From positions 438,105 to 502,104 of the forward strand of contig JACKDR010000001.1 in the NCBI GenBank assembly GCA_020633495.1: a stretch of DNA of 64,000 nucleotides, written 5' to 3'. The number at the start of each line of letters is the position of its first letter. Position 1 is the stretch's first letter. Position numbers and translations under genes: made by a program. Source of the stretch: Kofleriaceae bacterium (lineage in GTDB: Bacteria; Myxococcota_A; Polyangia; Haliangiales; Haliangiaceae). Shown here one piece after another: positions 1,552-63,996 of this stretch. Under the pieces are notes generated by a model. It was given only the letters and a program-made list of their open reading frames with translations, did no database searches and was not told where the DNA came from.

Positions 1552-3378
<1,827 letters not shown>

Positions 3379-44183: not shown

Positions 44184-44300
44184 GATCCCCGTGCCCGTGC
44201 CCGTGCCCGTGCCCGCGCCCGTGCCCGTGCCCGTGCCCGATCTGATCCCGTGCCCGTGCCCGCGCCCGTGCCCGATCGGCCCCACCCCACCCCACCCCGC
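44184..44300. repeat. intergenic (CCCGTG)n minisatellite, second copy, followed by a (CCCCA)n tract
   Basis: cccgtgcccgtgcccgtgcccgcgcccgtg...cccgatctg, related to 19632-19800. Confidence 0.8.
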
Positions 44301-46879: not shown

Positions 46880-48460
46880 ATGTGGCGCCTCGTGGTGATT
46901 TCCGCCGCCCTGGCGGCGTGCGGTAGCGATCCCGCCCTGCCCGATGGCGGGGATTCCGACACCGACGCCGCGAACTGCGGCACCGGGTCCGCCGGCGAGC
47001 CCGGCGTGGTGGTGACGACCAGCGGCGCGATCCGCGGCGTCGCCGCGGCCGCGGGCGGCACCGCGTACCTCGGCGTGCCCTACGCCGCGCCGCCGGTCGG
47101 CGACCTGCGGTGGCGCCCGCCGGCGCCCGCCGCCTGCGAGGACGGCGTCCGGGACGCCGACGCCTACGGGCCGCGCTGCCCGCAGGCCGACGCCGGCGGC
47201 GGCGCCGCGACCGACGAGGCCTGCCTCACGCTCAACGTCTGGGTCCCCGACGGCGCCGCGACCGACCGACCGGTGATGGTGTTCGTCCACGGCGGCGGCA
47301 ACTCGGCCGGGTCGGCCAGCGATCCGCTGTACGCCGGCGACCGGCTGGCCGCCGCCGGCGACGTCGTGGTGGTCACGATCGAGTACCGGCTCGGGCAGCT
47401 CGGCTACCTCGCCCACCCGGCGCTGTCGGCGGAGAACGTCGACGGCGTGTCGGGCAACTACGGCCTGCTCGATCAGGTCGCGGCGCTCGGCTGGGTCCGC
47501 GACAACATCGCGGCGTTCTCGGGCGACCCCGACAACGTCACGATCTTCGGCGAGTCAGCCGGCGGCCGGAACGTGTGCACGCTGCTGGCGACGCCGGCGG
47601 CGGCCGGGCTGTTCGCGCGCGCCATCGTCGAGAGCGGCGCCTGCAAGTTCCTGCGCGACCTGCCCGCCGCCGAGGCCCAGGGCCAGGACGTGGTCGACGC
47701 GCTCGGCTGCGCCGGCGCCGGCGACGTCGCGGCGTGCCTGCGCGCCGCGTCGGCCGCCGACGTCGTGGCCGCGGTGCCGTCCGACGTCGGCGTCCTGACC
47801 AGCTCGCTGTACAACCCGGTGGTCGACGGCGTCGTGCTGCCGGCGCAGCCCGAGGCGGCGCTGCGGGCCGGCGACGCCGCGGCGGTGCCGCTGATCGTCG
47901 GCGCCAACGCCGACGAGACCGGCAAGGAGGCGCCGCTGACCCTGACCCAGACCGCGTACGAGGACCTGGTCCACGCCCAGTTCGGCCCGGCGCTCGGCGA
48001 TCAGATCCTGGCCGAGTACGCCGCGGTGTCGCCGCCGCGGGCCGCGTACGTGGCGCTCACCTCCGACGCCCGCTTCATCTGCCCGTCGCGCGAGATCGCG
48101 CGCTCCGCCACGACCGGCGCCGGCACCGCGCGCCGCTACCTGTTCCGCTACGCGCCGGGCGCTGTCGGCGCGGTCCACGGCCTCGAGCTGCCGTACGTGT
48201 TCGGCACCTTCGACGCCGTCGTCGTCCCCGGCGGCGGCACGTACACGCCGACCGCGACCGACCTGGCGCTGTCGGCGCGGCTGCAGCGCATGTGGACCCG
48301 GTTCGCGCGCACCGGCGATCCCGGGGCCGATCCCGACCCGGCGTGGCCGGCCTGGGACGACGGCGACCCGGTGATGGTGCTCGACGACCCGACCGCGGTC
48401 GAGGCCGGCGCCGGCGCCGCGCACTGCGACTTCTGGCGCCCGCTGTACGAGGCGCTGTAG
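46880..48460 (+). CDS. type-B carboxylesterase lipoprotein
   Basis: FGESAGG nucleophile elbow; MVFVHGGG oxyanion region. Confidence 0.85.
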   Translation: MWRLVVISAALAACGSDPALPDGGDSDTDAANCGTGSAGEPGVVVTTSGAIRGVAAAAGGTAYLGVPYAAPPVGDLRWRPPAPAACEDGVRDADAYGPRCPQADAGGGAATDEACLTLNVWVPDGAATDRPVMVFVHGGGNSAGSASDPLYAGDRLAAAGDVVVVTIEYRLGQLGYLAHPALSAENVDGVSGNYGLLDQVAALGWVRDNIAAFSGDPDNVTIFGESAGGRNVCTLLATPAAAGLFARAIVESGACKFLRDLPAAEAQGQDVVDALGCAGAGDVAACLRAASAADVVAAVPSDVGVLTSSLYNPVVDGVVLPAQPEAALRAGDAAAVPLIVGANADETGKEAPLTLTQTAYEDLVHAQFGPALGDQILAEYAAVSPPRAAYVALTSDARFICPSREIARSATTGAGTARRYLFRYAPGAVGAVHGLELPYVFGTFDAVVVPGGGTYTPTATDLALSARLQRMWTRFARTGDPGADPDPAWPAWDDGDPVMVLDDPTAVEAGAGAAHCDFWRPLYEAL

Positions 48461-48512
48461 ATCCCGGCCGGCGGCGGCGACCGTGGGGCCGAGGGGGTAT
48501 CGTCCCTGCCCT

Positions 48513-49622
48513 ATGGCCGAGATCCGCCCGCCCGCCGAAGTCCGGTACGCCGACGAGCTCGCCGCCGTCGCCGGCGCCGACACCGCCGCCCGCCCGCCGG
48601 GCTGGAAGCTGTCGCCGCGCGCGGTCGAGACCTACGTCATGGGCAGCGAGGCGCCGGTCGGCGGCGTCGCGATCACGCCCAAGTACGTCGGCGATCGCGG
48701 CCTGGTCCAGGTCGCGATCGCGACGCTGGCGTCGGACCGGGCGCTGATGCTGATCGGCGAGCCGGGCACCGCCAAGAGCTGGCTCGCCGAGCACCTGGCC
48801 GCGGCGATCAGCGGCACCTCGGCGCTGGTGGTCCAGGGCACCGCGGGCACCAGCGAGGAGCACGTCAAGTACTCGTGGAACTACGCGATGCTGCTCGCCG
48901 ACGGGCCGAGCGAGCGCGCGCTGGTGCCGTCGCCGGTGCTGCGCGCGATGCGCGAGGGCCAGTGCGTGCGGTTCGAGGAGGTGACGCGCACGACCTCGGA
49001 GATCCAGGACTCGCTGATCTCGCTGCTGAGCGAGAAGCAGATCGCGATCCCCGAGCTCGGCGTCCAGGTCGCGGCGCAGCGCGGCTTCAACCTGATCGCG
49101 ACCGCCAACACCCGCGATCGCGGCGTCAACGAGATGAGCTCGGCGCTCAAGCGGCGCTTCAACTTCGTGACCGTGCCGGTGGTCGCCGATCTCGAGCAGG
49201 AGCTGGCGATCGTGACCCGCCGCGAGGCCGAGCTGCGCGGCGACTACCAGGTCGGCATGGCGCCGCCCGCCGAGCTGGCGCGGGTCCTGGTGACGATGTT
49301 CCAGGAGCTGCGCGCCGGCGTCACCAAGGACGGCAAGACCAAGGTCAAGGCGCCGACCTCGACGCTGTCGACCGCCGAGGCGATCAGCGTGCTGTTCCAG
49401 TCGGGCATCCTGGCCCACGGCTTCGGCACCGGCGCGGTCGGCGCCGGCGAGCTCGCCCGCACCCTGGTCGGCGCGCTGGCCAAGGACGGCCCCGACGATC
49501 TGGTCGTGCTGCGCGAGTACGCCGAGACCGTGGCGCGCACCCGTCCAGGGACCTGGAAGCAGCTCCACGCCGCGGTCCGCGACGCCACCGGCGGCAAGAA
49601 GCGCAAGACGGACGAGCCCTGA
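48513..49622 (+). CDS. MoxR-like AAA+ ATPase (AAA_5)
   Basis: Walker A LIGEPGTAKS; Walker B/sensor region; ~370 aa typical of MoxR/CbbQ-type ATPases. Confidence 0.8.
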   Translation: MAEIRPPAEVRYADELAAVAGADTAARPPGWKLSPRAVETYVMGSEAPVGGVAITPKYVGDRGLVQVAIATLASDRALMLIGEPGTAKSWLAEHLAAAISGTSALVVQGTAGTSEEHVKYSWNYAMLLADGPSERALVPSPVLRAMREGQCVRFEEVTRTTSEIQDSLISLLSEKQIAIPELGVQVAAQRGFNLIATANTRDRGVNEMSSALKRRFNFVTVPVVADLEQELAIVTRREAELRGDYQVGMAPPAELARVLVTMFQELRAGVTKDGKTKVKAPTSTLSTAEAISVLFQSGILAHGFGTGAVGAGELARTLVGALAKDGPDDLVVLREYAETVARTRPGTWKQLHAAVRDATGGKKRKTDEP

Positions 49623-52132
49623 TGACTCGCCGCCCCGACCTGGCGACGCTGGCCGCGGTGCGCATCCTGCCGGTGCGCCACCACTCGCCGCGCGTCAGCC
49701 AGGTCGTGCGCGCCGAGCTCGATCGCATCGACCCCGACGTGGTCCTCGTCGAGGGCCCCTCGGACGCCGGCGACCTGCTCTCGGTCCTGGTCGACGACGA
49801 CACCCGTCCCCCCGTCGCGATCCTCGGCTACCGCACCGACGGCCCCAGCCAGAGCGTGGTCTGGCCGTTCGCCAGCTACTCGCCCGAGTACGTGGCCCTG
49901 CGCTGGGCCCACGAACACGGCGTGCGTGCCGAGCTGATCGATCTCGACATCGGCACCGCCCTGGCGATCGCCGAGGAGGATCACGACGCCGAAGATCCGG
50001 ACACGGGCACGGACACGGACACGGACACGGACACGGGTTCGGAGGCGGACACGGGTTCGGAGGCGGACACGGGTTCGGAGGCGGAGGCGGAGGCGGAGGC
50101 GGAGGCGGACACGGACACGGACACGGACACGGACACGGACACGGACACGGACACGGGTTCGGAGGCGGAGGCGGATCCGGCCGCGGCCGCGTCCGCGGAC
50201 GACGACTTCGACTCCCTCGACGACGCCATCGCCTCCTCCGCCCACATGGCCTCCTTCGACGAGGTCTGGGACGCCTGGCTCGAGTCTCCCTCCCACGCCG
50301 CCGCCGACCTCAACCGCGCCCTCCTCGCCTACGCCGGCCTCCTCGCCGCCCGCGGCCGCCGCTCCCACCGCACCCGTCACCGCGACGCCGTCATGGCGCG
50401 CCACATCCTCGCGACCGTCGCCGCCGGCACGCCGCCCTCCCGCATCGTCGTCATCGTCGGCGCCGCCCACGCCGCCGCCTTCCTCGCCGGCGACGTCGAC
50501 CTCGACCTCGCCGACGATCTGCCCGCGCCGCTGCCCTGCGCGCGCACGCTGATCCCCTACAGCTTCCCGCGCCTGTCCGAGCAGCTCGGCTACGGCGCCG
50601 GCAACCGCGCGCCGCGCTACTACCAGCGCGCCCACGACGCCGGCTGCGACTTCGAGCGCGCCTCGCTCGAGACCCTGATCGAGCTCGGCGAAACCCTGCG
50701 CCTGCGCGGCTTCGCGGTGTCGCTCGCCGACACCATCGAGGCCTGGCGCCTCGCCGTCACCCTCGCCGGCATGCGCGGCAAGCCGGCGCCCGGCCTCGAC
50801 GAGGCCCGCCAGGCCGCGATCGCCACGATGGGCCGCGGCGAGGCCGGCCCGATCGACGCCGCCCTCGCCCCCGCCGCGGTCGGCCGCGCCATCGGCCGGG
50901 TCGCGTCGCGCCTCGGCCAGGGCCCGCTGCAGGCCGAGTTCTGGCGCGAGGTCCGGGCCCGCCGCCTGCCCGAGCGCGACGATCCCGAGGACCTCACGCT
51001 GTCGATGGTCGACGACGTCCAGGTCGACACCAGCGTGTTCCTGCACCGCCTCCGCCTCGCCGACGTCCCGTACGCGACCTTCCGCGGCGCCGGCCGCGAT
51101 CGCGGCGCCGCCCGCGGTCGCGGCGACGACGACGCCGGCGGCCTCGACGCGCTGTCGCGGGTCCGCGAGGGCTGGACCGCGCAGTGGACGCCGGCCACCG
51201 ACGTCGCGCTGGTCGAGAAGGTCGTCCTCGGCGACGGCCTCGAGGAGGTCGCGTCGCGCCTGCTGCTCGATCGCCTCGCCGCGGCGCGCGGCACCGGCGA
51301 GGCCGCCGACGTCCTGCTCGAGGCGGTGGTCGCCGGCTGCCCCGCGGTGGTGGCTCGCGCCCTCGCCGCCTGCGACGCCGCCGCCGCCCACGACGACGAT
51401 CTGCCGTCGCTGGCGCGGGCGTGCGCCGCGCTGTCGGCGCTGACCTCGTACGGCACGTCGCGCGCCCACACCGGCGGCGACGCCGCGATCGCGACCCTGT
51501 GCGTGACCACCTTCGAGCGCGCGGTGCTGCGCCTGCCCGGCGCCGCCGCGGTCGACGACGCCGGCGCCGCCGCGGTCAAGACCGCGCTGCGCGCCCTGCA
51601 CGAGGTCGCGCTGGCCCAGCCGCGGGTCGCCGGCCACGGCCGCGACGCCTGGCTCGCCGCCGCGCGCGACACCGCCGACGCCTTCGACGTCCACCCCGAG
51701 ATCGCCGGCCTCGCCGCCGGCCTGCTCTACCTGGCCCAGGCCCTCGACGACGCCGCGGTCGCGACCGCGGTGTCGCTGCGGCTGTCGCCGGCGATCGATC
51801 CCGCGGCCGGCGCCGCGTACCTCGCCGGCTTCCTCGAGGTCAACGCGCTGGTCGTGGTCAAGAGCCGGCCGGTGGTCGCCGCGCTCGACGCCTACCTCGC
51901 CACCCTCGACGGCGAGACCTTCCCCGACGTCCTGCCGGTGCTGCGCCGCGCGTTCGCCGCGCTGGGCGCGACCGAGCGCCGCTACCTGCTCGAGAACGTG
52001 ATCGCGGTGCGTGGCCTGGGCGCGCAGGCCGGGGCCGCCGCCGCGGTCGTCGCCGCCACCGACCGCGCCGCGGTCGAGGCCCTGGCCGGCGATCTCGCCG
52101 GCGCCCTCGACGATCTCGACGACCTGCTGTGA
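49622..52132 (+). CDS. large DUF5682-like protein with internal (GTD/SEA)n acidic repeat
   Basis: ATG overlaps the upstream stop (TGATG); N-terminal ILPVRHHSP motif as recalled for DUF5682; 836 aa. Confidence 0.7.
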   Translation: MTRRPDLATLAAVRILPVRHHSPRVSQVVRAELDRIDPDVVLVEGPSDAGDLLSVLVDDDTRPPVAILGYRTDGPSQSVVWPFASYSPEYVALRWAHEHGVRAELIDLDIGTALAIAEEDHDAEDPDTGTDTDTDTDTGSEADTGSEADTGSEAEAEAEAEADTDTDTDTDTDTDTDTGSEAEADPAAAASADDDFDSLDDAIASSAHMASFDEVWDAWLESPSHAAADLNRALLAYAGLLAARGRRSHRTRHRDAVMARHILATVAAGTPPSRIVVIVGAAHAAAFLAGDVDLDLADDLPAPLPCARTLIPYSFPRLSEQLGYGAGNRAPRYYQRAHDAGCDFERASLETLIELGETLRLRGFAVSLADTIEAWRLAVTLAGMRGKPAPGLDEARQAAIATMGRGEAGPIDAALAPAAVGRAIGRVASRLGQGPLQAEFWREVRARRLPERDDPEDLTLSMVDDVQVDTSVFLHRLRLADVPYATFRGAGRDRGAARGRGDDDAGGLDALSRVREGWTAQWTPATDVALVEKVVLGDGLEEVASRLLLDRLAAARGTGEAADVLLEAVVAGCPAVVARALAACDAAAAHDDDLPSLARACAALSALTSYGTSRAHTGGDAAIATLCVTTFERAVLRLPGAAAVDDAGAAAVKTALRALHEVALAQPRVAGHGRDAWLAAARDTADAFDVHPEIAGLAAGLLYLAQALDDAAVATAVSLRLSPAIDPAAGAAYLAGFLEVNALVVVKSRPVVAALDAYLATLDGETFPDVLPVLRRAFAALGATERRYLLENVIAVRGLGAQAGAAAAVVAATDRAAVEALAGDLAGALDDLDDLL
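49990..50170. repeat. in-frame (GGACAC/GGGCAC)n and (GAGGCG)n hexamer repeats within the DUF5682-like gene
   Basis: ggacacggacacgg...ggaggcggaggcgg; encodes TDTDTD/SEAEAEAE. Confidence 0.8.
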
Positions 52133-52159
52133 TCCTCCGAGTCCGCGACCGCCGCTGCC

Positions 52160-53380
52160 ATGACCGACACCCCCGACCCCGACGACCTGTCCGCCGCCGA
52201 CCGCGCCGCGCTGCTGCGCTGGCGGCTGGCGATCGGTCCGGGCGCCGAGCAGGCGCTGCCCGCGGCCGCGCTCGACCAGCTCGCCGCCGGCGCCGACGGC
52301 CTCGGCGTCGATCCCGACGAGCTCGGCGAGCTCGACGAGGTCCTCGCGTTCGTCTACGACGGCGCCCGCGCCGGCAAGGCGGCGGCGCGGCCGTACCTGC
52401 CGCGCTGGCTGGGCGGGCTGCGCAAGTTCTTCCGCAAGGACGTCGTCGCGATGGTCCAGCAGGACGCGATCGATCGCCGCGGCCTCGCCGAGCTGATGTT
52501 CGAGCCCGAGACCCTGCCGTTCCTCGATCGCAACGTCGAGCTGGTCGCGACGATCATGGCGGCGCGCCACCTGGTCCCCGACCAGGCTCGCGACCTGGCC
52601 CGGCAGATCGTCCGCGAGGTCGTCGACGACCTGCGCCGCCAGCTCGAGCCCGAGATCCGGACCGCGGTGCTGGGCGCGGTGCGCCGCGACCAGCACGCGC
52701 CGCTGCCCAGCCTGCGCAACCTCGACTGGCCGCGCACGATCCGCAAGAACCTCGGCCGCTGGGACGCCGACCGCAAGCGCCTGCTCGCCGACCGCCTGTA
52801 CTTCTGGAAGAACCAGCGCCGCCGCCAGGAGTGGGACGTCGTCCTCGCCGTCGACCAGTCGGGCTCGATGGCGCAGAGCGTGGTCTACGCCGCGGTCATG
52901 GCCGCGATCTTCGCCTCGCTCGACGTCCTGCGCACCCGGCTGTGCTTCTTCGACACCGAGGTCGTCGACGCCACCCCGCTGCTGACCGATCCGGTCGACG
53001 TCCTGTTCTCGACCCAGCTCGGCGGCGGCACCGACATCAACCGCGCGGTGGCGTGGGCGCGCGAGCACCTGGTCGAGCGCCCCGAGCGCACGCTGTTCGT
53101 CCTGGTCAGCGATCTCTACGAGGGCGGCGACGCCGGCCAGCTGGTGGCGCGCATGCGCGAGCTGGTCGAGTCGCGGGCCCGGGTGCTGTGCGTCCTGGCC
53201 CTCACCGACGACGGCCGGCCGTCGTACGACCACGGCCTGGCCCGCGAGCTGACCGCGGTCGGGGTCGCGTGCTTCGGCTGCACCCCGCGGCTGCTCACCG
53301 ACGTGGTCGCGCGGGTGCTGCGCGGCCAGGACCCCGCGCCGCTGCTCGCCGCGGCGCGCGCGCCGCACGTGACGAGGTGA
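52160..53380 (+). CDS. vWA-domain protein (CoxE-like, MoxR-associated)
   Basis: MIDAS AVDQSGSM...T...D; immediately follows the ATPase/DUF5682 pair. Confidence 0.8.
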   Translation: MTDTPDPDDLSAADRAALLRWRLAIGPGAEQALPAAALDQLAAGADGLGVDPDELGELDEVLAFVYDGARAGKAAARPYLPRWLGGLRKFFRKDVVAMVQQDAIDRRGLAELMFEPETLPFLDRNVELVATIMAARHLVPDQARDLARQIVREVVDDLRRQLEPEIRTAVLGAVRRDQHAPLPSLRNLDWPRTIRKNLGRWDADRKRLLADRLYFWKNQRRRQEWDVVLAVDQSGSMAQSVVYAAVMAAIFASLDVLRTRLCFFDTEVVDATPLLTDPVDVLFSTQLGGGTDINRAVAWAREHLVERPERTLFVLVSDLYEGGDAGQLVARMRELVESRARVLCVLALTDDGRPSYDHGLARELTAVGVACFGCTPRLLTDVVARVLRGQDPAPLLAAARAPHVTR

Positions 53381-53382
53381 CC

Positions 53383-56326
53383 GTGCGCCGCCTCGGCCTC
53401 GACGACCTGCGCGCGATCGTCACCGACGCCACCGAGCTGGCCAAGGGCGCCCGCCTCGAAGGCGACGGCGGGCTGGCGAACCTGGCCCGCCACGACGCCC
53501 GCCTGTACGCCGACGCCGCGGGCGCGGCGGCGGCGCCGTACAAGGTCACGATCACGTTCGGCGACGGCGCCAAGGTCACCGCGCGGTGCACGTGCATGGC
53601 GGCGCGGACCCGGCCGTTCTGCAAGCACGCCGCCGCGCTGCTGGTGGCGTGGGCCAACGGCCCCGAGGCGTTCGTCGAGAGCGACCGGCCGCCGCCGGGC
53701 GCGCCGGTCGACAAGAAGCGCGCGGTCAAACGCGGCAAGCGCGACCAGGCCGCGCTGCGCGCCGACGGCGTGGCCCGGGCGATCACGCTGGTCCGCGAGC
53801 TGGCGGCGACCGGCGTGGCGTCGGTGGCGGCGGGCCGCGCCGACGCGGTCCGCGATCTCGCCGAGGCGCTGCGCGCGGCGACGCTGCGGCGGCTGGCGGC
53901 GCGGGTCCACGCGGTCGCGGCGCTGCTGGCGCGCGCCGACGACGGCGGCCGGGTGCCGGCGGCGGCGATGGCGGAGCTCTTGTGCGACGTGCTCTTGACC
54001 GCGCGCAAGATCGAGAAGCACCTCGGCGGCGAGCCGCTCGACGATCGCCACGTCGAGGAGCTGATCGGCAAGACCTGGCGCAAGACCGACCGCGCGCCCG
54101 TCGACGGCCTGGCGCTGGTCGAGTACGCGTACCGCGCCGAGGCCACCGCCGACGGCTTCCTGATCCGCGAGGCCCGCTACCTCGACCTCGAGGGCGGCGG
54201 CCACTACGCCGAGAAGCAGATCCTGCCGGCGTGGCTGGCGCGCCGCACGCCGCCGCCGCCGAGCCGCGCCGGGGTCGTGCTGGTCGGCGCCGGCGGCAGC
54301 CTGTACCCGGGGTTCCCGCCGCGTCGCCTCGACCTCGAGCGCGTCGGCGAGCCGCGGCCGCTCGACGGCGCCGCGACGGCGCGGCTGGTCGGCCACGCCC
54401 TGCCCGGCGTCGGCGCCGCGCTGACCGCGCTGCAGGACCACCGCCGCGATCCGTTCGCGCCGGACCGGCTGCCGGTGGCGGTGCGCGTCGACGCGGTCGT
54501 CGCCGCCGCCGGCCGGCTCCGCCTGGTCGACGACGCCGGGCTGGGGCTGCTGCTGCCCGCCGCGCTCGCCCTCGACGAGGCGCTGGGCGCGGCGCTGCGC
54601 GGCGCGACGCTGCGCGCGGTGATCGGCGAGCTGGCGGTCGAGCACGCGCTGCCGGCGCTGACGCCGCTGGCGGTGATCGTCGAGGTCGGCGGGGTCGCGA
54701 CGCTGCGGCCGCTGGGCCCGATCGCGAGCGGCGCGCGCGGCGGCAGGCGGCGCGGCCGACGACGACGATCGCGACTGGGTCGCGCCGGCGCGCGCCGCCG
54801 GCGCGTCGGTGGCGGCGATCCGGCTCGCCGAGGTCCGCGGCGAGGTCGCCGACCTGCTGGCGCAGGGCCTCGGCGCGTTCACCCCGCGCGCGGTCGAGGC
54901 GCCGGCGGCGCGGCTGCGCGAGCTGGGCGTGGCCAGGCCTGCCGACCTGCTGGCCGGGATCGCGGCGCGCCCGGTCGAGGACCGGCTCGAGGACGTCGTG
55001 CGCGTGCATCAGGTGCTGGGCGTCGCGCTGGTCCGGCTGCTCGGCGCCCAGCCGGTGGCGCTCGACGACCTCGAGGCGGTGCCGACCCACCCGAGCGTCA
55101 AGGTGCCGCGGCCGGCGCGGTGGCTCGCGCTCGACGAGGCGATGGCGGCGGCGGCGCGCGGCGAGCTCGATCGCTGGAGCGCGGCCGCACACCTGGCGCG
55201 CGCGATCGACGCGGTCCCGGCCGCGGAGCTGCTGGCCCGGGTCGATCCGTGGTGGTCGATCGCGGCGCTGGCGCCGATGGTCGCGGCCCGGGTCGCGGCG
55301 CTCGACGGCGCGGCGGAGGTCGCGCGGCAGGTGCTGACCCCGGCGCGGCAGGCCGGGCGGGTGGCGCGGCGTACCGCGGTGCGGGTGCTGGTCGCGACCG
55401 AGGCGGCGCTGGCGCGCGCGGTCGCCGCCGCGATCGGCAGCGACGGCGATCTCGGCCTGCGCAGCTTCGCGCTGGCGTGCATGGACGAGGCGCGGGCGCG
55501 CGGCGGCGCGGGCGGGCGCGCGGGCGACGCGGGCGGCGCGGCCGGCGGCACGCGCGCCGCCGACGGCGGCGACGTCGAGGCCGCAGCGGCGCGGCTGCGG
55601 CAGCGGCGGGCCATGGTCGGCGACCTGGCGCGGACGCTGGCGCAGGCGTCCGGCCCCGACGATCGCCGGCGCGCCGCCGCCGCCCTCGCCGACGCCGGCG
55701 ACGACGCCGCGACCGCGGTGCTGCGCCGCGCGTGGCTGCAGGACAGCTCCGGCGAGGTCCGCGAGGCCGCGGCGATGGCGCTGGGCCGGCTCGGCGACGC
55801 CGAGGCCATCGACAGCTTCGTCGCGGCGCTGCGCCGGCGCGACGTCGACGGTGGCGCCGCGCGCGCCGCCGCGCTCGGCCTCGGTCAGAGCGGCGACGTC
55901 GCCGGCGCCGCGGCGCTGGTCGAGGCCCTGGTCGCCGGCTGGCGCCCGCCGCTGGTTGCCGAGTGCCTGCGCCTGGCCGGCGCGCCGGGCGCCCGCCGCC
56001 TGCTGGCGGCGATCGAGCGCGCACCGGCGGTGGCGAAGCGCAAGTCGACGCGCGAGATCCTGGGCGCCATGTCCGCAGGCGACATCGAGGCCCTGGTCGC
56101 CGAGCGGCTGGCCGAGCGCGGCAGCGGCGGCGGCGGCGGCAGCGGCGACGACGCCGCGGCCGACGACGACGCGCGGGGCGCGCGCGGAGGCGCACCTGAC
56201 CGCGATCGGCAGGACGGGCCGGCGGCGTACGGCTGCGCCCGCGCGGTGATCGCTGCGCTCGGCGACGAGCCGAGCGGGAAGGCGGCGAAGGCCGCCGTGA
56301 AGCGCGCGAAGGCGATCCTGGGCTGA
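53383..56326 (+). CDS. SWIM zinc-finger protein with C-terminal HEAT-like repeats; apparent frame switch near 54720-54810
   Basis: GTG 2 nt after the vWA stop; SWIM CTCMAARTRPFCKH; protein-like sequence moves from the 53383 frame to the 54809 frame; HEAT-like (EVREAAAMALGRLGD) repeats. Confidence 0.6.
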
Positions 56327-56329
56327 GCA

Positions 56330-56770
56330 GGGGCGCGACGGGGCCGCGGCCGTGGCCGTGGCCGTGGCCGTGGCCGTGACCGTGGCCGTGGCCGTGGCGG
56401 TGGCCGTGACCGTGGCCGTGGCCGTGGCCGCCCCGCCCGCCTCCGCCTCCGCCTCCGCCTCCGCCCCCGCCTCCGCCTCCGCAGCCGCCTCCGCCTCCGC
56501 CTCCGCCTCCCCGCCTCCGCCTCCGCCCCCGCCTCCCGCCTCCGCCTCCGCCTCCGCCTCCGCCCCCCCTCCGCCTCCGCCTCCGCCTCCGCCTCCGCCT
56601 CCGCCTCCCCCGCCTCCGCCTCCGCCTCCGCCTCTGCGGCCGCCGCCGCCTCCGCCCCCGCCTCCGCCTCCGCCTACGCCTCCGCCCCCGCCTCCGCGGC
56701 CGCCCCCGCCTCCGCCTCCGCCTCCGCCTCCGCCTCCGCCTCTGCGGCCGCCGCCGCGCCTCCGCGCCCG
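56330..56770. repeat. ~440-bp simple-sequence tract: (GGCCGT/GACCGT)n ~80 bp then (GCCTCC)n ~320 bp
   Basis: Direct inspection; lies between the SWIM-HEAT gene and the SNF2 helicase; ORF 56352-56774 only translates the repeat. Confidence 0.85.
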
Positions 56771-56902
56771 GTGACGCCCGCTTGTCGGGACGCGATCAGC
56801 CCGGCGTGGCATGGTCCGCGGTCGATGATCCCGTCGCAACGGACCCCGCGATCGACGGCGCGACGACGCGACGGCGCCGCCGCCGTGACGGGCGCGACCA
56901 GT

Positions 56903-59608
56903 ATGGGGATCGGCGTGACGCCGCGCGGCCAGCTGACGCTGGTCGACGACGGCGACCAGGCCCCGGTCGGCATCGAGGTCGCGGCGCGGTTGCGCGCCGG
57001 GTTCGCGGGTGGTGACGGCGCGGGCCTGGTCTGGCTCGGCACCGCCGAGGTGCGCACCACGCTGCCGGCGTCGCTCGGGTTCTGGCGCGACCTGGGGGCT
57101 CGCTACGTCGCGACGGTGTGCGCGCGCGGCGAAGACGCGGCGGTCACACCGGTCGCGCCTCCGGACCTCGAGACGCTGACCGCGCTCGCCGCCGCGGCAC
57201 CGCCGGCGCCCGGCGCCGAGTACGTCGACGCCGCGCTGCTCGACGCGGTCTGGCGCCGCCTCGACGACGCGTTCCGCGCCGAGGTCGACCGCACCCGAGG
57301 CGGGGTGGCGGCGCTGCTGCGGGCGCGTGACGCGGCCTGGCATCTGGTCGGGCGGGTCCACTTCAACCTCGCCGAGCACCGGGGCGACGACGACGCGCCG
57401 TTCGCGTTCCTGGCCACGTACACCACCAGCCTCAACCGTCAGGCGCGCGCGCAACACGTGCCGCTGGGCCAGGCGCTCCGCGACTACGCCGGGGCCCGGG
57501 CCCGGGCCCAGCTCCACGCCCTGCTGTCGCCGGTGCAGCGCGCCGCCGAGCGCTGCGCGTGGGTGGCGGAGCTGGTCGAGAGCGGCGACGTCTACCACCC
57601 GCTGCGCTGGAGCGCCGCCGAGGCGTCGCGCCTGCTCCGCGACGTGCCCGCCCTCGAGGCCGCGGGGGTGGTGGTGCGGATGCCGGCGGGCTGGGGTGGA
57701 GCCCGACCGCCGAGGCCGCAGGCGACCGTCACCGTCGGCAGCCGCGCGCCCGGCGGGCTCGGCCTCGACGCCCTGCTCGACTACCGCGCCGAGGTCTCGC
57801 TCGACGGAGAACCGCTCACCGACGACGAGCTCCGGGCGCTGCTCGACGGCGCCGACGGCCTGCGCCTGCTGCGCGGCCGCTGGGTCGAGCTCGATCGCGA
57901 GCAGCTCGCGGCAGCGCTCGATCGCCTCCGCGCCGCCGAGCGAGCCACCGCCGACGGCCTCAGCTTCGCCGAGGCCATGCGCCTGGTCGCCGGGGCGTCC
58001 CTCGCGGCTGACGACGCCGCGCCGCCCGAGGCCCGACCGCGCGTGGTGCCGGGCCCGTGGCTGGCCGAGACCCTCGCCGGGCTGCGCGCGCCCGACGGGC
58101 TCGCCGCGATCGAACCTGGCGAGGCGCTGCACGCCCGGCTGCGCCCGTACCAGGAGGTGGGCGTGCGCTGGCTGTATCTGCTGACCCGGCTGGGGCTGGG
58201 CGCCTGCCTCGCCGACGACATGGGCCTGGGCAAGACGATCCAGGTGATCGCGCTGCTGCTGGTGTCGCGCCGACCACGCGCCGCCACGCCCCCGAGCCTG
58301 CTGGTAGCGCCGGCGTCGCTGCTGGGCAACTGGACCGACGAGCTGGCGCGGTTCGCGCCCGGCCTGCGGGTGCGCATCGCCCACGCCTCGGCGATGCCCG
58401 CCGACCGGCTGACCGCCACGACGCCACCGGTGCTGCGCGACGTCGACCTGGTCATCACCAGCTACGGCACCCTGCCGCGGGTGCCGTGGCTGACCGCAGG
58501 CTCGTGGGACCTGCTGATCGTCGACGAGGCCCAGGCGATCAAGAACCCGGGCGCGCGCCAGACCCGCGCGATCAAGGCGCTGCGCGCGCGGGCGCGGATC
58601 GCGATGACCGGCACGCCGGTCGAGAACCGACTCGGCGACCTGTGGTCGATCTTCGACTTCCTCAACCCGGGGTTGCTGGGCACGGCGCGCCAGTTCACGA
58701 CCTTCACCCGCCAGCTCGACGCCGGCGGCTACGGCCCGCTGCGCGCCCTGATCCAGCCGTACGTGCTGCGCCGGCTCAAGTCCGATCGCCGGATCGTCGC
58801 CGATCTGCCGGACAAGACCGAGGTGATCGCCTACTGCGGCCTGTCGCCGCGCCAGGCGGCGTTGTACCAGCAGACCGTCGACGAGCTGGGCGGGACCCTG
58901 CGGCGCGCGAACGGCATGCAGCGCCGCGGCCTCGTGCTGGCGGCGCTGACGCGGCTCAAGCAGATCTGCAACCACCCCGCGCACGGGCTGGCCGGCGACG
59001 ACTGGCCCGAGGCCGACAGCGGCAAGCTGGGCCGGGTCCGCGAGCTGGCCGAGGTCGTCGCCGCCAAGCAGGAGCAGCTGCTGGTGTTCACCCAGTTCCG
59101 CGAGGCCACCACGCCACTGGCCGCGCTGCTCGCCAGCGTGTTCGGCCGCGACGGCGCGATCCTTCACGGCGGCACGCCGGTGGCGCAGCGCGCCCGACTG
59201 GTCCGACGCTTCCAGGACGGCGACGCGCCGTTCTTCGTGCTGTCGCTCAAGGCCGGGGGCACCGGGCTCAACCTGACCGCCGCCGCGCACGTCGTGCACT
59301 TCGATCGGTGGTGGAATCCGGCCGTCGAGGATCAGGCCACCGACCGCGCGTACCGCATCGGCCAGCACCGCAACGTCCTGGTCCACAAGCTGGTGTGCCG
59401 CGGCACCGTCGAGGAGAAGGTCGACGCCCTGATCGCCGGCAAGCGGGCCCTGGCCCGCGAGCTGCTCGAGGGCGACGGCGCCGCGGCGCTCACCGAGCTG
59501 TCCGACGCCGAGCTGATGGACCTGGTCGCGCTCGACCTCGGGCGCGCGATGGTCGAGGGTACCGGCAACGGCGCGGCGGCGAACCGCCGCAAGGAGCGAC
59601 GCACATGA
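56903..59608 (+). CDS. SNF2-family helicase/ATPase; start uncertain, could be as early as 56771
   Basis: SNF2_N DMGLGKT, DEAQAIKN, TGTPVEN; Helicase_C ...DRAYRIGQ. Confidence 0.85.
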   Translation: MGIGVTPRGQLTLVDDGDQAPVGIEVAARLRAGFAGGDGAGLVWLGTAEVRTTLPASLGFWRDLGARYVATVCARGEDAAVTPVAPPDLETLTALAAAAPPAPGAEYVDAALLDAVWRRLDDAFRAEVDRTRGGVAALLRARDAAWHLVGRVHFNLAEHRGDDDAPFAFLATYTTSLNRQARAQHVPLGQALRDYAGARARAQLHALLSPVQRAAERCAWVAELVESGDVYHPLRWSAAEASRLLRDVPALEAAGVVVRMPAGWGGARPPRPQATVTVGSRAPGGLGLDALLDYRAEVSLDGEPLTDDELRALLDGADGLRLLRGRWVELDREQLAAALDRLRAAERATADGLSFAEAMRLVAGASLAADDAAPPEARPRVVPGPWLAETLAGLRAPDGLAAIEPGEALHARLRPYQEVGVRWLYLLTRLGLGACLADDMGLGKTIQVIALLLVSRRPRAATPPSLLVAPASLLGNWTDELARFAPGLRVRIAHASAMPADRLTATTPPVLRDVDLVITSYGTLPRVPWLTAGSWDLLIVDEAQAIKNPGARQTRAIKALRARARIAMTGTPVENRLGDLWSIFDFLNPGLLGTARQFTTFTRQLDAGGYGPLRALIQPYVLRRLKSDRRIVADLPDKTEVIAYCGLSPRQAALYQQTVDELGGTLRRANGMQRRGLVLAALTRLKQICNHPAHGLAGDDWPEADSGKLGRVRELAEVVAAKQEQLLVFTQFREATTPLAALLASVFGRDGAILHGGTPVAQRARLVRRFQDGDAPFFVLSLKAGGTGLNLTAAAHVVHFDRWWNPAVEDQATDRAYRIGQHRNVLVHKLVCRGTVEEKVDALIAGKRALARELLEGDGAAALTELSDAELMDLVALDLGRAMVEGTGNGAAANRRKERRT

Positions 59609-60729
59609 GCTGGGGGAGCGGCTACGGATACGGCTGGGCACCGAGCAAGACCGTGGCGCAGCGGCGCGCCGAGGCCGCGCGAGCGATCGCCAAGGCGGCC
59701 ACGCGGGGCCGCGCCCTGGCGCCGGTGCGGATCGAAGGCCGCACCATCGCCCGCACGTTCTGGGGCAAGGCCTGGTGCGACAACCTCGAGCGGTACCAGG
59801 ATCTCGCCTACCGGCTCGACCGCGGGCGCAGCTACGTGCGCAGCGGGTCGGTGATCGACCTGCGGATCGGGGAGGGCCGGGTGGAGTCCCAGGTCCTGGG
59901 CAGCGATCGGTACCAGGTGGAGATCGACATCGACCGCCTCGACGCCAAGGTGTGGCGGGCGATCCAGCGCGACTGCGCCGGCAGCATCGGCTCGCTGGTC
60001 GAGCTGCTCGGCGGCGAGCTCTCCGACGCCGTGATGACGCGGCTGTGCGCCGACGGCAAGGGCCTGTTCCCGACGCCGCGGGCGATCCACATGAGCTGCA
60101 GCTGTCCGGACTACGCCACGATGTGCAAGCACGTCGCGGCGACCTTGTACGGCGTCGGCGCCCGGCTCGACGCCGAGCCGTCGATGCTGTTCACGCTGCG
60201 TGGCGTGACCACCGACGATCTGGTCGCCGCCGTGACCCGCGAGCTGCCGGCGGCGAGGCCGGCACGCGGCGGCGCGCGGGTGCTCGACGGCGGCGACGAC
60301 CTGGGCGCGATGTTCGGCATCGACCTCGCGAGCAGCGTCGGCGGGGACGACGCGGGCGACGCGGGCGACGCGGGCGACGCGGGCGACGCGGCGAAGGGGG
60401 CGAAGACGCCGAAGGCCAGGGCCAAGGCCAAGGCCAAGGCCAAGGGCAAGCCCAAGGCCGGGGCCAGGATCGGGACCAAGGCCGCGACCGGGAACAAGAA
60501 CGAGGTCGCGGCCAAGACCGCGGCCATGGCCAAGGCCAAGCCCAAGCCCAAGCCCAAGCCCAAGCCCAAGGCCAAGGCCAAGACCAAGCCCAAGACCAAG
60601 ACCAAGACCAAGACCGCGGCCAAGACCAAGACCAAGACCAAGACCGCGGCCGAGACCAAGACCAAGTCCAAGCCCAAAGCCAGGTCCAAGCCCAAGGCCG
60701 CGATCAGGACCAGCGCCCGGCCCCGGTGA
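59605..60729 (+). CDS. SWIM zinc-finger protein with (GDA)n and Lys/Pro/Ala/Thr-rich histone-like C-terminal tail
   Basis: ATG overlaps the helicase stop (ATGA), AAGGAG RBS; SWIM CSCPDYATMCKH; tail AKAKAKGKPK...KPKPKPKPK. Confidence 0.8.
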   Translation: MSWGSGYGYGWAPSKTVAQRRAEAARAIAKAATRGRALAPVRIEGRTIARTFWGKAWCDNLERYQDLAYRLDRGRSYVRSGSVIDLRIGEGRVESQVLGSDRYQVEIDIDRLDAKVWRAIQRDCAGSIGSLVELLGGELSDAVMTRLCADGKGLFPTPRAIHMSCSCPDYATMCKHVAATLYGVGARLDAEPSMLFTLRGVTTDDLVAAVTRELPAARPARGGARVLDGGDDLGAMFGIDLASSVGGDDAGDAGDAGDAGDAAKGAKTPKARAKAKAKAKGKPKAGARIGTKAATGNKNEVAAKTAAMAKAKPKPKPKPKPKAKAKTKPKTKTKTKTAAKTKTKTKTAAETKTKSKPKARSKPKAAIRTSARPR

Positions 60730-60848
60730 CGGGCCACGCGCTCGGCGCACCCACACCGGGCACCGGCGCCCGCGCGCAGAGCGGCCCGCTCGTCCGCAGA
60801 CGGGCTCGTCGCACCTGCACGGAGACCGCCCCGCGCAGACGCCCGCGC

Positions 60849-61280
60849 TCAGGTCAACGCGCGCTGCATCGCCTCGGCCTGCTCGCGCGTCGCCATCCCG
60901 AGGTGCAGCCGGTACTTCTTCGCCGCCTGCACGATCAGCAGCGGGTACTCGACGCCGCGGCTGTACGCGGAGCGCAGCTCGACGCCCTTGATCTCGGCGC
61001 GCGCGACGTAGACCGAGTGCTTGTCCTGCGCCACGTAGTCGGCCGGCGTCATCGTCGCCAGCCTGGCCTCGGCGGCCTCGATCTCGCGATCGTAGCGCTC
61101 GGCGATCTTGTCGATCATCTTGCGGGCCAGGGCCCCGGCGACGCCGACCGTGCGCACCTCGCGGGTCGCGTTGCCCGTGCACAGGAGGTACATGCCGTCA
61201 CGATCCCAGATCACGGTCCAGGTCCGCGCCCGCGCGATCAGGCCCGGCGGCGTCACGACGCGATCGATGCGCTCGCTCAT
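60849..61280 (-). CDS. hypothetical protein (144 aa)
   Basis: Protein-like composition from the internal start MSERIDRV; no family recognised. Confidence 0.4.
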   Translation of the reverse strand: MSERIDRVVTPPGLIARARTWTVIWDRDGMYLLCTGNATREVRTVGVAGALARKMIDKIAERYDREIEAAEARLATMTPADYVAQDKHSVYVARAEIKGVELRSAYSRGVEYPLLIVQAAKKYRLHLGMATREQAEAMQRALT

Positions 61281-61341
61281 CGGCGACGAGTAGAGCCCAC
61301 GGCGGCGCGGCGAGCAACGCCCGCCGCGCCGCCGCATCCGC

Positions 61342-62020
61342 TTACCAGTTACCCCGCTCGTAGTCGCGCAGCCGCCAGGTCCGGCCGTCGAGGTGATCGA
61401 CGACGGTCCCGTCCTGGCAGCGCACGGTGCGCCGCTTGTCGGCGCGCTCACCACGGCCGATCTGGGCGCGCCGGTCGCGCGCCCGGGCGTCGGCCACCCG
61501 CTCCGCCGCCAGCGCGACCAGCCGGGCCCGCAGGATCGCCAGCGCGCGCTCGCGATTGAACAGCTGCGACCGCTCGGACTCGCAGCGGACCCGCAGCCCG
61601 GTCGGCCGGTGCGTCAGTTGCACCGCGCTGTCGGTCTTCTGCAGGTGCTGACCGCCGCTGCCCGAGGCCCGGCACAGCGTCCACTCGAGGTCGGCGGCGC
61701 GCACCTCGACCGCCGCCGGCGCGACCTCGGGCAGGACCGCGACGGTGATGGTGCTCGAGTGCACGCGGCCCCGCTTCTCGGTGGGCGGCACGCGCTGCCA
61801 GCGGTGACCGCCGGCCTCGCCGGCGAACAGCGCCGCCGCGCCGCGCCCCGCGGCGCGGAAGACGATCAGCCCCGGGCGCTCGTCGACGAGCTCGAGGTCA
61901 AAGTCGCCTCCGCTCCCCGAGCTGGCCATAGATGCGCAGCTGCTCGCGCACCAGCAGGCGGGCGTCCGCGCCGCCCTCGGCGGCGCGGATCTCGACGATC
62001 ACGATCTCCTCGTTCGACAT
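61342..62020 (-). CDS. prfH: PrfH-like short class-I release-factor paralog (domains 2-4, GGQ) read through a +1 frameshift at CTT-TGA-C
   Basis: Frame 0 from ATG 62020 gives MSNEEIVIVEIRAAEGGADARLLVREQLRIYGQLGERRRL then TGA; the +1 frame continues DFDLELVDE...HRWQRVPPTEKRGRVHSSTITVAVLPE...SGSGGQHLQKTDSAVQLTH...SERSQ, matching E. coli PrfH as recalled. Confidence 0.65.
61897..61912 (-). promoter_or_regulatory. RF2-type +1 programmed ribosomal frameshift cassette: internal SD GGAGG, 3-nt spacer, CTT TGA C
   Basis: Minus-strand sequence ggg gag cgG AGG cga CTT TGA Cct; E. coli prfB has AGGGGG uau CUU UGA C. Confidence 0.6.
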
Positions 62021-62400
62021 CACGGATCTCCTTGTTCTCTGCTCGCTTCGCAAACGACTGCCAGGACGCTCGGCCGGTGGGCCGCGTCAAGGCTTGCGCG
62101 AAGGTGCAGACGAGATCGACATGACGAAGAGCTAGCTATCATGGGAGCGCGGGGCGCGCCAGGAGGAAGCGGAGGATGCAGTGCATGGGTGGGTGACCTC
62201 AGTCCTCCGGACTCATCGTCGCGCGAGTTGGATCTGCTGCCGCGAAGAGAACGTCTTGCTTCGAATCCGGTCCGTCCGTCTCGTCGCTATCGCGGCTCCC
62301 ATCCGTCCACAAGCGCGAGAGTCTAAGTTAGTTGATCGAACGTGCTCCAGATCTCGGTTCTTTGTTGCCCGCAACTCGGGTTCGCGGCCAGAATGCAGGC

Positions 62401-63153
62401 ATGTCGCGGAGTTCCATCGAGTGGACGGACGAGACGTGGAACCCGGTGACCGGGTGCGAGAAGGTCTCGCCTGGCTGCAAACACTGCTACGCGGAACGCT
62501 TTGCTGAGCGGTTCCGAGGCGTGGACGGTCATCCATACCAGCAGGGCTTCGATCCCCAGCTTCGCCCTGATCGAGTCGAACAACCGCGGGCCTGGAAGTC
62601 ACCACGCATGGTGTTCGTGAACAGCATGAGCGACCTATTTGGCGACTTTGTACCTGATTCGTATCTCGCGAAAGTCTTCAGGGTGATGCGAGACACGCCG
62701 CAGCACACGTACCAGATTCTGACGAAGCGCGCAGAACGCCTGGAGACATGGACGCGTTCGCAGCGCTGGCTCTTGACCGCGTCGAACATATGGCTCGGCG
62801 TATCTGTTGAGGACAGGAAGTACGGCGTTCCGCGGATCGGGCATCTTCAGAAAGCCAATGCCGCCTGTCGGTTTCTCTCTGTCGAGCCGTTGCTGGAAGG
62901 GCTTGGCACTCTCGACCTTGCGAAGATCGACTGGGTAATCGCGGGTGGAGAGAGCGGGCCCGGTGCGCGTCCGATGCAACTCGAATGGGTGCGTAGCGTC
63001 CGCGATCAGTGCATCAAGAAGCGGGTCGCGTTCTTCTTCAAGCAATGGGGGGGCGTCCAGAAACACCGAAGCGGCCGAGTGCTGGACGGTCGAACGTGGG
63101 ACGAGATTCCCGAAAGGTCTCGACTAGAACAGTCTCCCCTGGCCGCTCGGTAG
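62401..63153 (+). CDS. phage Gp37/Gp68-family protein (DUF5131, three-Cys motif) in a low-GC island
   Basis: SIEWTDETWNPVTGCEKVSPGCKHCYAE hallmark; local GC ~55-60% against ~73% for the window. Confidence 0.8.
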   Translation: MSRSSIEWTDETWNPVTGCEKVSPGCKHCYAERFAERFRGVDGHPYQQGFDPQLRPDRVEQPRAWKSPRMVFVNSMSDLFGDFVPDSYLAKVFRVMRDTPQHTYQILTKRAERLETWTRSQRWLLTASNIWLGVSVEDRKYGVPRIGHLQKANAACRFLSVEPLLEGLGTLDLAKIDWVIAGGESGPGARPMQLEWVRSVRDQCIKKRVAFFFKQWGGVQKHRSGRVLDGRTWDEIPERSRLEQSPLAAR

Positions 63154-63996
63154 CTTGGCGGTGATGCTGTTCCAGATCTTGTCGCCGAGCGAATCCTTGG
63201 ACGCGAAGACTAGGTGGTAGAGCACCACCTGTTGCATGTTCTTGATGGACGGGTACGTCACGTCCCCGCGCTCCGGGTAACCGAGCATGGCGAGTTGGCG
63301 GCGAAAGAGTGGAATCAGCAGGCGCACGTCGTCTCCATGGACGATGTCAACACCCCATCTCGAGCGCGGCAGACCCAGGAATCCCTCGAAGCGCTCGTGC
63401 TCGAGGAAGTTGCGCTTCATCGACCCAAGTGGAAAGTGGATAATGAGATCCATCCGGGGAAACGCGGCGAGCTTACGGATCGTCTCGAATTTCAGGTTAC
63501 TTGCCCCGAATGGATCGATCAGCGCGACCGCGAACCCGTTGGGTGGGATCTTGCCCACAACCTTGTCAATGGTCTGGTTGCAGTCTCCTCCGATGATCGT
63601 GACGCGTTTGTCCCCTTCGGTGCGCTTCTGAAGGGCGGCGATGTTCTCCTCATCGATGTCGCACAAGATAATGTCCGTGAAGCCGTGTTCCCGGTGCGGG
63701 ATGCTCGTCGCGATGAGGGGACTCCCGTCGATGAACTCCACTGGTTCACGGACGCGGGCCTTCCCTGGACCCGCGAAGAGATCGATCAACGCCGTGCCAC
63801 CCGTCCCTTTTGGGGGCATGAATCGCGCACGTACGTTGCGGGTCGCGGCGAGGTAATTGCGCAAATAGTGGTGCTTGTCCTTCGCCCACACTCCCACGCA
63901 CTGGACCGGGAGCTGATCGATCGGATCGACAGCGGCGGTGCAGTTGCCGTTCCTCTTCTCGCACTTCTTCATGTTGCCCACTCCAGGCATTAGCAT
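63124..63996 (-). CDS. TcmP-like three-Cys-motif partner protein, SAM-methyltransferase-like fold
   Basis: LIDLFAGPG (MTase motif I-like) and IDPFG (motif IV-like); convergent with the DUF5131 gene, overlapping it by 30 nt. Confidence 0.65.
   Translation of the reverse strand: MLMPGVGNMKKCEKRNGNCTAAVDPIDQLPVQCVGVWAKDKHHYLRNYLAATRNVRARFMPPKGTGGTALIDLFAGPGKARVREPVEFIDGSPLIATSIPHREHGFTDIILCDIDEENIAALQKRTEGDKRVTIIGGDCNQTIDKVVGKIPPNGFAVALIDPFGASNLKFETIRKLAAFPRMDLIIHFPLGSMKRNFLEHERFEGFLGLPRSRWGVDIVHGDDVRLLIPLFRRQLAMLGYPERGDVTYPSIKNMQQVVLYHLVFASKDSLGDKIWNSITAKLPSGQGRLF

Follow-up and report, generated by a model that had tools for sequence, protein, structure and literature searches.

Midasin and NorQ both work with a MIDAS/vWA (metal ion-dependent adhesion site/von Willebrand factor type A) element to pull on a partner protein. 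Within the MoxR family, YehL is one of seven subfamilies in the classification of Snider and Houry, as cited in PMC3893208. In Escherichia coli K-12, the gene order is yehL (MoxR family ATPase), yehM, yehP (vWA), and yehQ (SWIM). The yehL-yehM region is bound by H-NS and derepressed in hns stpA mutants (PMC3686432). For yehP, a horizontal origin has been suggested; the gene also shows a validated +1 frameshift site, as well as a swarming phenotype (PMC2790909). Bacillus subtilis YwqA, a Swi2/Snf2 translocase that interacts with RNA polymerase, is poorly characterized (PMC7385302). Here, we examine a 64,000-nucleotide stretch of DNA from a Kofleriaceae bacterium (GenBank assembly GCA_020633495.1, contig JACKDR010000001.1, positions 438,105 to 502,104), hereafter the window, in which four genes resembling yehLMPQ (g1 to g4, module A) are followed by an SNF2 helicase gene and a SWIM gene (g5 and g6, module B).

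We compared module A with the E. coli operon. As in E. coli, an AAA_5 MoxR ATPase, a DUF5682 protein, a VWA_CoxE protein with a MIDAS motif, and a protein with a SWIM finger at residues ~55-90 are encoded in the same order. The g1 product shares 45% identity with YehL across 354 of 369 residues (E 8e-96); g2 and YehM align at 24-35% identity, and g3 and YehP at 33%. The Pfam DUF5682 model matches g2 at 413.8 bits (cut-off, 26), with 717 of its 727 positions covered. BLASTP of g4 against YehQ gave no match at 1e-2, and hhalign paired the two proteins over the SWIM region only, weakly (E 0.017); by Pfam, the SWIM and HEAT domains of g4 sit at the position expected for the cassette. Unlike YehQ (614 aa), the fourth protein here would have ~980 aa, with a C-terminal HEAT region. 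The E. coli operon also differs from the window copy in that g4 is frameshifted and g2 carries an acidic insert encoded by a microsatellite. Judging from these comparisons, g1 to g4 are a member of a widespread YehLMPQ-type cassette, a link that a preliminary description of the locus had missed.

Three motifs are constant across the family. The Walker A motif of g1, GEPGTAKS, is conserved and invariant, and the vWA MIDAS motif DQSGS, intact in g3, is found in 74 of 74 sequences. The Walker B motif (g1 residues 152-159) reads R-h-E-E-h-T/S-R in all 78 YehL-subfamily members, with Glu-Glu in place of the usual Asp-Glu, and could be used to diagnose membership in the subfamily. The preliminary description knew of no described function for this exact architecture, and the literature agrees: a full-text search returned no paper containing "DUF5682" and no relevant paper for DUF5691, yehLMPQ, or PDC-S62.

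To define the extent of the cassette, we scanned one genome per GTDB species with the DUF5682 profile. The family comprises about 1280 clusters (50% clustering) at E <= 1e-30. At least 587 loci were confirmed, and 80 were kept for a census that covers Myxococcota, Chloroflexota, Paenibacillus and Clostridia, Actinomycetota, Planctomycetota, Pseudomonadota, Bacteroidota, Deinococcus, and a metagenome-assembled genome (MAG) of Leptospirales. At least eight phyla are represented among the cassette loci. In tblastn searches, MoxR lies before DUF5682 in 77 of the 80 loci, and vWA after it in 74. Among 112 open reading frames (ORFs) flanking 19 diverse cassettes, the sole recurrent families were SWIM (10), DUF5691 (7), and HEAT_2 (4). 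Since SWIM and HEAT parts are constant and are the only recurrent neighbors, we take the unit to be a five-module cassette.

The same five modules are permuted, fused, or split across phyla. In Myxococcota, a single SWIM-HEAT gene follows vWA. In E. coli, this position is held by YehQ, for which Pfam reports no HEAT domain. In Paenibacillus, Clostridia, Bremerella, and Wohlfahrtiimonas, a SWIM gene and a ~620-aa HEAT gene lie upstream of MoxR, and in Rhodococcus and Nocardia the HEAT protein corresponds to Pfam DUF5691; separate ~620-aa HEAT or DUF5691 genes occur in the cassettes of Paenibacillus, Bremerella, Rhodococcus, and Nocardia. In actinobacterial and Firmicute cassettes, the SWIM and HEAT genes are upstream of MoxR, whereas the corresponding gene of the window locus is downstream of vWA. 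Nocardia also fuses SWIM to DUF5691 (~950-1035 aa), which mirrors the SWIM-HEAT fusion of the window, although the HEAT half of g4, unlike the actinobacterial HEAT proteins, scores below significance with the DUF5691 model. An Anaerolineales MAG (L019) has the order MoxR, DUF5682, HEAT, vWA, SWIM.

Some loci show further peculiarities. In four Sorangium loci (L004, L006, L007, and L018), the vWA gene is at least 9 kb from DUF5682, so that the cassette is not always contiguous; a HAMP histidine kinase and a sigma-54 activator are among the products encoded in the insertions. Directly upstream of the Anaerolineales cassette, and co-directional with it, is a gene for an NB-ARC and WD40 STAND protein (L019, 6543-8801). 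In E. coli K-12 (L001, 475-8290), yehLMPQ is preceded by yehF (WGR domain), the pseudogene yehH, yehI (DUF4132), and yehK. Unlike in E. coli, yehF and yehI have no counterpart at the window locus, and homologues of yehF, yehH, yehI, and yehK were found near none of the 80 other cassettes.

Module B has a distribution of its own. g5 shows the canonical SNF2 motifs GLGKT and DEAQ in its translation, and its best curated match is the NCBIfam equivalog NF058637 (SCO1167/SCO6262 family helicase), at 594.6 bits, below the cut-off of 1200. g6 has at least 5798 homologues, annotated as "uncharacterized Zn finger protein". In all three neighborhoods of g6 homologues that we checked (L083, L084, and L086), a DUF3670-SNF2-Helicase_C gene ends in a 4-nt overlap with the g6 homologue, and its product (924-935 aa) has the architecture of g5. 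DUF3670-SNF2 helicases paired with a SWIM protein are very common in bacteria. The K/P/A tail of g6 has a locus-specific length that sets it apart from other such pairs, although basic low-complexity C-terminal tails, found in the g6 homologues inspected, are a compositional feature of the family. Toxin-antitoxin or eCIS/PAAR (extracellular contractile injection system) genes are present in two of the three neighborhoods, too few to call. YwqA presumably shares the DUF3670-SNF2 architecture, with a SWIM neighbor (YwqA/YwqB), and we take Mycobacterium tuberculosis HelZ/Rv2102 to be a helicase and SWIM pair of the same type. In module B, the SNF2 translocase may remodel a protein-DNA complex, for which the SWIM protein with its basic tail would be a DNA-binding adaptor.

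The two modules do not travel together. No homologue of g5 or g6 lies within 10 kb at any of the 80 cassette loci (tblastn, E < 1e-4, a threshold at which the SNF2 core is readily detectable), and no MoxR, DUF5682, or vWA gene lies within 10 kb of the SNF2-SWIM pair in any of the three neighborhoods. Because cassettes lack SNF2 and g6 and SNF2-SWIM loci lack the cassette, the window probably contains two independently inherited modules, a YehLMPQ-type cassette and a DUF3670-SNF2/SWIM pair, that are merely adjacent.

The mechanical ORF list of the window, whose G+C content is ~75%, is swamped by spurious long ORFs; genes were therefore called from the G+C content at third codon positions (GC3) in each frame, together with the translations. 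This analysis yielded six co-directional coding regions on the plus strand between 48513 and 60729 (Table 1). The g2 product is 100% identical to a protein from a MAG of Kofleriaceae (Myxococcota). The domains named in the preliminary description were all recovered by Pfam, with the SWIM domain of g6 slightly under its cut-off (18.4 against 19.6 bits); its CxCx(n)CxH motif, CSCPDYATMCKH, is visible in the translation. Direct reading of the sequence gives overlaps of 1 nt at g1/g2 (TGATG) and 4 nt at both g3/g4 (GTGA) and g5/g6 (ATGA). The overlapping starts and stops described earlier are thus real at these three junctions and do not extend to g2 and g3, which are 27 nt apart. A scan of positions 48000-62500 detected no promoter-like sites and four terminator-like sites, all on the minus strand within genes, and is uninformative at 75% G+C. 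An Rfam scan of the window found no RNA families.

Table 1. Coordinates of the genes, gene parts, repeats, and neighboring features in the window.
Feature	Position	Strand	Description
g1	48513-49622	+	MoxR-type AAA+ ATPase, YehL subfamily; Pfam AAA_5 2.7e-39; alternative GTG start at 48483
g2	49622-52132	+	DUF5682 protein, 836 aa, YehM homologue; Pfam DUF5682 1.9e-123
g2 in-frame microsatellite	49998-50156	+	(CGGACA)x26, encodes D/T/G/S/E/A-rich disordered insert; Tandem Repeats Finder (TRF)
g3	52160-53380	+	CoxE-like vWA protein, YehP homologue; Pfam VWA_CoxE 5e-46, 157 bits
g4	53377-56326	+	SWIM at residues 55-91, HEAT_2 (2e-10) in C-terminal half; frame-broken
g4 N-terminal half	53377-54744	+	SWIM zinc finger 55-91, predicted four-helix bundle 124-230 and tandem OB-like beta-barrels 240-445
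g4 frame break	54706-54776	+	One extra base relative to intact gene
g4 C-terminal half	54773-56326	+	HEAT-repeat region (Pfam HEAT_2 2e-10); counterpart of DUF5691/separate HEAT proteins elsewhere
Intergenic microsatellite	56342-56757	.	(GGCCGT)x15 at 56342-56430 and (CCGCCT)x54 at 56437-56757; TRF and direct reading
g5	56771-59608	+	DUF3670, SNF2-rel_dom, and Helicase_C; start GTG 56771 or ATG 56825
g6	59605-60729	+	SWIM protein with basic K/P/A-rich tail; conserved partner of SNF2 gene
g6 tail microsatellite	60412-60699		(AAGGCC)x48, 288 bp, encodes ~110 residues; TRF
Microsatellite	2835-2977		
Microsatellite	19629-19795		
Microsatellite	44188-44274		
tRNA-Ile call	34048-34138	-	ARAGORN, 91 nt; within high-GC3 ORF 33922-35550, overlapping 12-mer tandem repeat 34084-34146
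Kinase/STAND protein	36065-39277	-	1070 aa; Ser/Thr kinase domain and AAA_16 STAND-type NTPase
Release-factor-like protein	61342-61929	-	195 aa; C-terminal half of release factor 1 (PCRF end and RF-1 domain with GGQ)
DUF5131 protein	62332-63153	+	Pfam 2.7e-100; convergent with TcmP
TcmP	63124-63996	-	Three-Cys-motif partner protein; TIGR04474 1.4e-43

We turned to structure for the individual proteins. The nearest solved relatives of g1 are the Midasin AAA modules (E 5e-22) and NorQ (E 4e-5), whereas a sequence search of the PDB retrieved no solved relative for g2 (as a profile) or g3. Module A resembles Midasin/Rea1 and NorQ-NorD in pairing an AAA_5 ATPase with a MIDAS-containing vWA protein. 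It differs from them in that the ATPase and the MIDAS are on separate polypeptides, in the lack of a nor or ribosome-biogenesis context, and in the EE rather than DE Walker B. The AlphaFold2 model of g2 (predicted local distance difference test [pLDDT], 82; predicted template modeling score, 0.77) has an N-terminal alpha/beta domain split by a disordered acidic insert, a middle domain, and a C-terminal alpha-solenoid. The low-complexity insert spans residues ~125-205, and pLDDT falls below 50 for residues 135-193.

In 82 DUF5682 sequences from all phyla, R19, H20, P23, E44, S87-P88-E89, G280, and H283 are invariant. This pattern is reminiscent of the motifs of the TIKI/TraB/erythromycin-esterase superfamily, a GTxH-like element followed by E and then GxxH, and the modeled N terminus of DUF5682 is probably a TraB/ChaN/erythromycin-esterase-like domain with invariant His20, Glu44, and His283. 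No Pfam model of the TIKI, TraB, PrgY, ChaN, or erythromycin-esterase families matched g2 at E <= 0.01, and DUF5682 departs from this superfamily in having ~500 further residues, of alpha/beta and alpha-solenoid structure, fused to the domain. As for g4, its modeled SWIM protein probably combines a ZSWIM8-like SWIM domain, a four-helix bundle, and tandem barrels of the oligonucleotide/oligosaccharide-binding (OB)-like type. Foldseek matched the two beta-barrels to the telomere-end-binding protein, HIN-200 domains, SSB, and RPA70, with probabilities up to 0.99 and marginal E values (1.6e-3 to 1e-2).

A mechanism for module A may be sketched from these resemblances. A MoxR hexamer with a vWA/MIDAS adaptor would form an ATP-driven remodeler, as in Midasin, NorQ/NorD, and RavA/ViaA; the complex on which it would act could have the two alpha-solenoid proteins as its scaffold. 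The SWIM, four-helix-bundle, and tandem-OB part of g4 would recognize the target, possibly a nucleic acid or a protein-nucleic acid complex, and the TraB/ChaN/erythromycin-esterase-like domain of DUF5682 would provide a hydrolytic or ligand-binding output. We offer as speculation, at low confidence, that the YehLMPQ-type cassette may be an unrecognized five-module ATP-dependent machine of a regulated conflict or stress-response class, in which a SWIM/tandem-OB/HEAT sensor would bind a nucleic acid or nucleoprotein and a MoxR hexamer (EE Walker B) with its MIDAS adaptor would then activate or remodel a TraB/Tiki-like DUF5682 hydrolase.

Several points weigh against our reading of the locus as two modules and of module A as such a remodeler. 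We infer every step of the module A mechanism beyond the presence of the domains: it is assembled from fold resemblances, of which the OB-like one comes with Foldseek E values that exceed 1e-3, and H20, E44, and H283 are putatively catalytic by analogy with motifs of the TIKI/TraB families. The orthology of g4 and YehQ is positional. The independence of module B is read from three neighborhoods on its side, compared with 80 on the other. Lastly, g4 is frameshifted, so module A may be nonfunctional in this genome.

The preliminary description had presented the SWIM/HEAT protein of ~980 aa as one ORF, whereas its halves are in different frames in the window sequence. The g4 region is 2950 nt long, which is not divisible by 3, and its GC3 signal shifts phase near position 54800. 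In tblastn searches with single-ORF relatives, the frame changes between 54714 and 54776, and deleting a single base anywhere in 54706-54772 restores a 982-aa ORF. Of 11 myxobacterial relatives, 10 encode both halves in a single ORF of ~950-1000 aa. A comparable arrangement, with the SWIM and HEAT halves in different frames, was observed in a Polyangiaceae MAG (L016, 13467-16338); the two breaks reflect either recurrent assembly errors in a GC-rich linker or recurrent inactivation.

The break in g4 stems either from an error in the assembly or from a true mutation. In the latter case, module A would be a decaying remnant in this genome and no SWIM-HEAT protein would be made, a scenario that is possible and that we consider doubtful. 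The separate frames of the two halves agree with it, as do the break in the Polyangiaceae MAG and the fate of the upstream frame, which continues for ~1.45 kb as Arg-rich nonsense up to a stop at 56199. Against it, both halves retain a GC3 of 0.94-0.99 and the conserved motifs are all intact, so any inactivation of g4 must be very recent; moreover, one extra base in a low-complexity linker of 75% G+C is a typical error of MAG assembly or polishing. No independent contig across the break was found, the only one recovered (L082, 3.7 kb) stopping short of it, and exact-protein look-ups of g6 and of both alternative g4 products gave no match.

We then asked whether the module A cassette has a role in defense or in housekeeping. 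Searches against PADLOC-DB v2 (5027 models) gave no matches for g2, g3, or the HEAT half of g4. The only match of g1 was marginal (mad8, E 1.4e-3), and the SWIM regions of g4 and g6 matched a single-gene candidate only, PDC-S62, over ~80 and ~40 residues, respectively. With the Pfam bpMoxR model (PF20030; cut-off, 27) of the MoxR-vWA-beta-propeller, or ternary, conflict systems, g1 reached 23.6 bits, over residues 54-102 only, and the operon encodes no beta-propeller partner. The upstream neighbors in the window encode an aldo-keto reductase, a HAD hydrolase, a desaturase, a two-component pair, a HIT protein, a murein endopeptidase, and a carboxylesterase. Genes flanking the cassette vary and are for the most part of housekeeping type. 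At the 19 diverse loci, a small sample with no statistical baseline, a defense gene lies within three ORFs of the cassette in only a few cases, and the matches are scattered: one Septu PtuA/PtuB pair, one SoFic, one type IV restriction enzyme, and PD-T4-6-like kinases. Of 5426 complete E. coli genomes, 5353 carry yehLMPQ, as a single chromosomal copy at one site. This near-core presence is unlike that of typical strain-variable defense systems.

One scenario holds that module A alone is an antiphage or conflict system, with a TraB-like hydrolase regulated by MoxR-vWA and triggered by SWIM-OB-HEAT sensing of nucleic acids. Its patchy spread over at least eight phyla, variable flanks, and rearranged gene order are in keeping with such a role, as are the occasional Septu, SoFic, and restriction neighbors, the H-NS binding and derepression of the E. 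coli region, the suggested horizontal acquisition of yehP, and the modeled OB/HIN-like fold, which hints at nucleic acid binding. We regard this scenario as unlikely, given that the core proteins lack PADLOC matches, g1 falls short of bpMoxR, the window flanks are of housekeeping type, defense genes are near only a few of the 19 loci, and almost all complete E. coli genomes carry the operon at one site.

Alternatively, module A may be a chaperone of the MoxR/vWA type, dedicated to the maturation or remodeling of one particular housekeeping client complex and analogous to CoxD/E, NorQ/D, CbbQ/O, or RavA/ViaA. All characterized MoxR-vWA pairs act in this way (PMC3893208), g3 is a member of the CoxE family, NorQ ranks with the solved structures closest to g1, and the operon is near-core in E. 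coli. Yet no cox, nor, cbb, or ldc gene is present in the window or among the 112 flanking ORFs, and no client genes (cox, nor, cbb, nuo) recur at the 19 loci or in the window. No NCBIfam model, equivalogs included, reached its cut-off for the proteins of the block. The large partners (DUF5682, SWIM, and HEAT), three or four in number and invariably inherited together, also resemble a machine rather than a client, which makes this scenario improbable as well.

The preliminary description held that a conflict role would be contradicted by freely varying flanks that lack a defense-island association or by membership in a known CoxE/NorQ chaperone pathway; the flanks do vary freely and no such association was seen, whereas no known pathway of that kind was found. 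Overall, a defense role of module A is neither shown nor excluded by these data, and we give a conflict-type function and a dedicated chaperone function a low probability each.

It is very improbable, and largely refuted by the neighborhood census, that all six genes form the single nucleic acid-targeting defense system suggested in the preliminary description, an NTP-dependent composite in which AAA+, vWA, and SNF2 ATPases would be directed to foreign nucleic acid by a pair of SWIM proteins. In its favor, the genes share one direction and are closely spaced, both blocks contain SWIM modules (with weak matches of the N-terminal regions of g4 and g6 to the defense candidate PDC-S62, at 1e-8 and 3e-6), and the SNF2 core scores high against ZorD, DpdE, and DrmD models, but a 416-bp microsatellite lies between the blocks, the PADLOC SNF2 matches cover the generic helicase core only (residues ~447-920), the g5 scores are far from the equivalog cut-offs (284 of 1500 for ZorD, 63-75 of 610-950 for DrmD, and 42 of 500 for DpdE), the window neighbors include no partner genes of Zorya, Dpd, or DISARM, and the separation of cassettes and SNF2-SWIM pairs at the loci surveyed from both sides speaks against a joint system.

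With the two modules probably independent, the window is one more, possibly damaged, copy of two catalogued modules, the DUF5682/DUF5691/YehL-type MoxR cassette and the DUF3670-SNF2 and SWIM pair. The outcome is negative for the composite system and a modest gain for the cassette family. The interest lies in family-level predictions rather than in the window locus, namely, the five obligatory, shuffled modules, the EE Walker B motif, the probable TraB/Tiki-like start of DUF5682, and the probable OB-like barrels. As yehLMPQ is nearly universal in E. coli, these predictions are testable in a tractable organism. If the proposal were true, the five-module machine would represent a new class of regulated systems for conflict or stress response, found from E. 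coli to myxobacteria.

Hexanucleotide microsatellites are unusually dense in the window for a bacterial genome; there are at least seven, with 15-54 copies (Table 1). The simple-repeat tract between g4 and the SNF2 gene, pointed out in the preliminary description, is real and is not special to the locus: with similar repeats at so many sites, it reflects a habit of the genome. In-frame repeats encode dipeptide-repeat inserts or tails, DT/GSEA in g2 and KA/KP in g6. We also considered whether the 416-bp tract could be coding, either as an N-terminal extension of the SNF2 protein or as read-through from g4. There is no in-frame start codon before 56771, and an extension is also contradicted by the relatives' helicases, which have 924-935 aa compared with 927-945 aa here.

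Other features of the window lie outside the two modules. The ARAGORN call of a tRNA-Ile is probably a false positive, as Rfam reports no tRNA at that position. Between 62000 and 64000, the G+C content falls from ~74% to 60%, and the convergent DUF5131 and TcmP genes at this edge of the window look like a horizontally acquired mobile pair. The 195-aa release-factor-like protein is below the prfA, prfB, prfH, and ArfB cut-offs and represents either a gene fragment or a release-factor paralogue that is truncated or has diverged. Finally, the window encodes a protein with a Ser/Thr kinase domain and a STAND-type NTPase, a signaling or conflict-type architecture common in myxobacteria.

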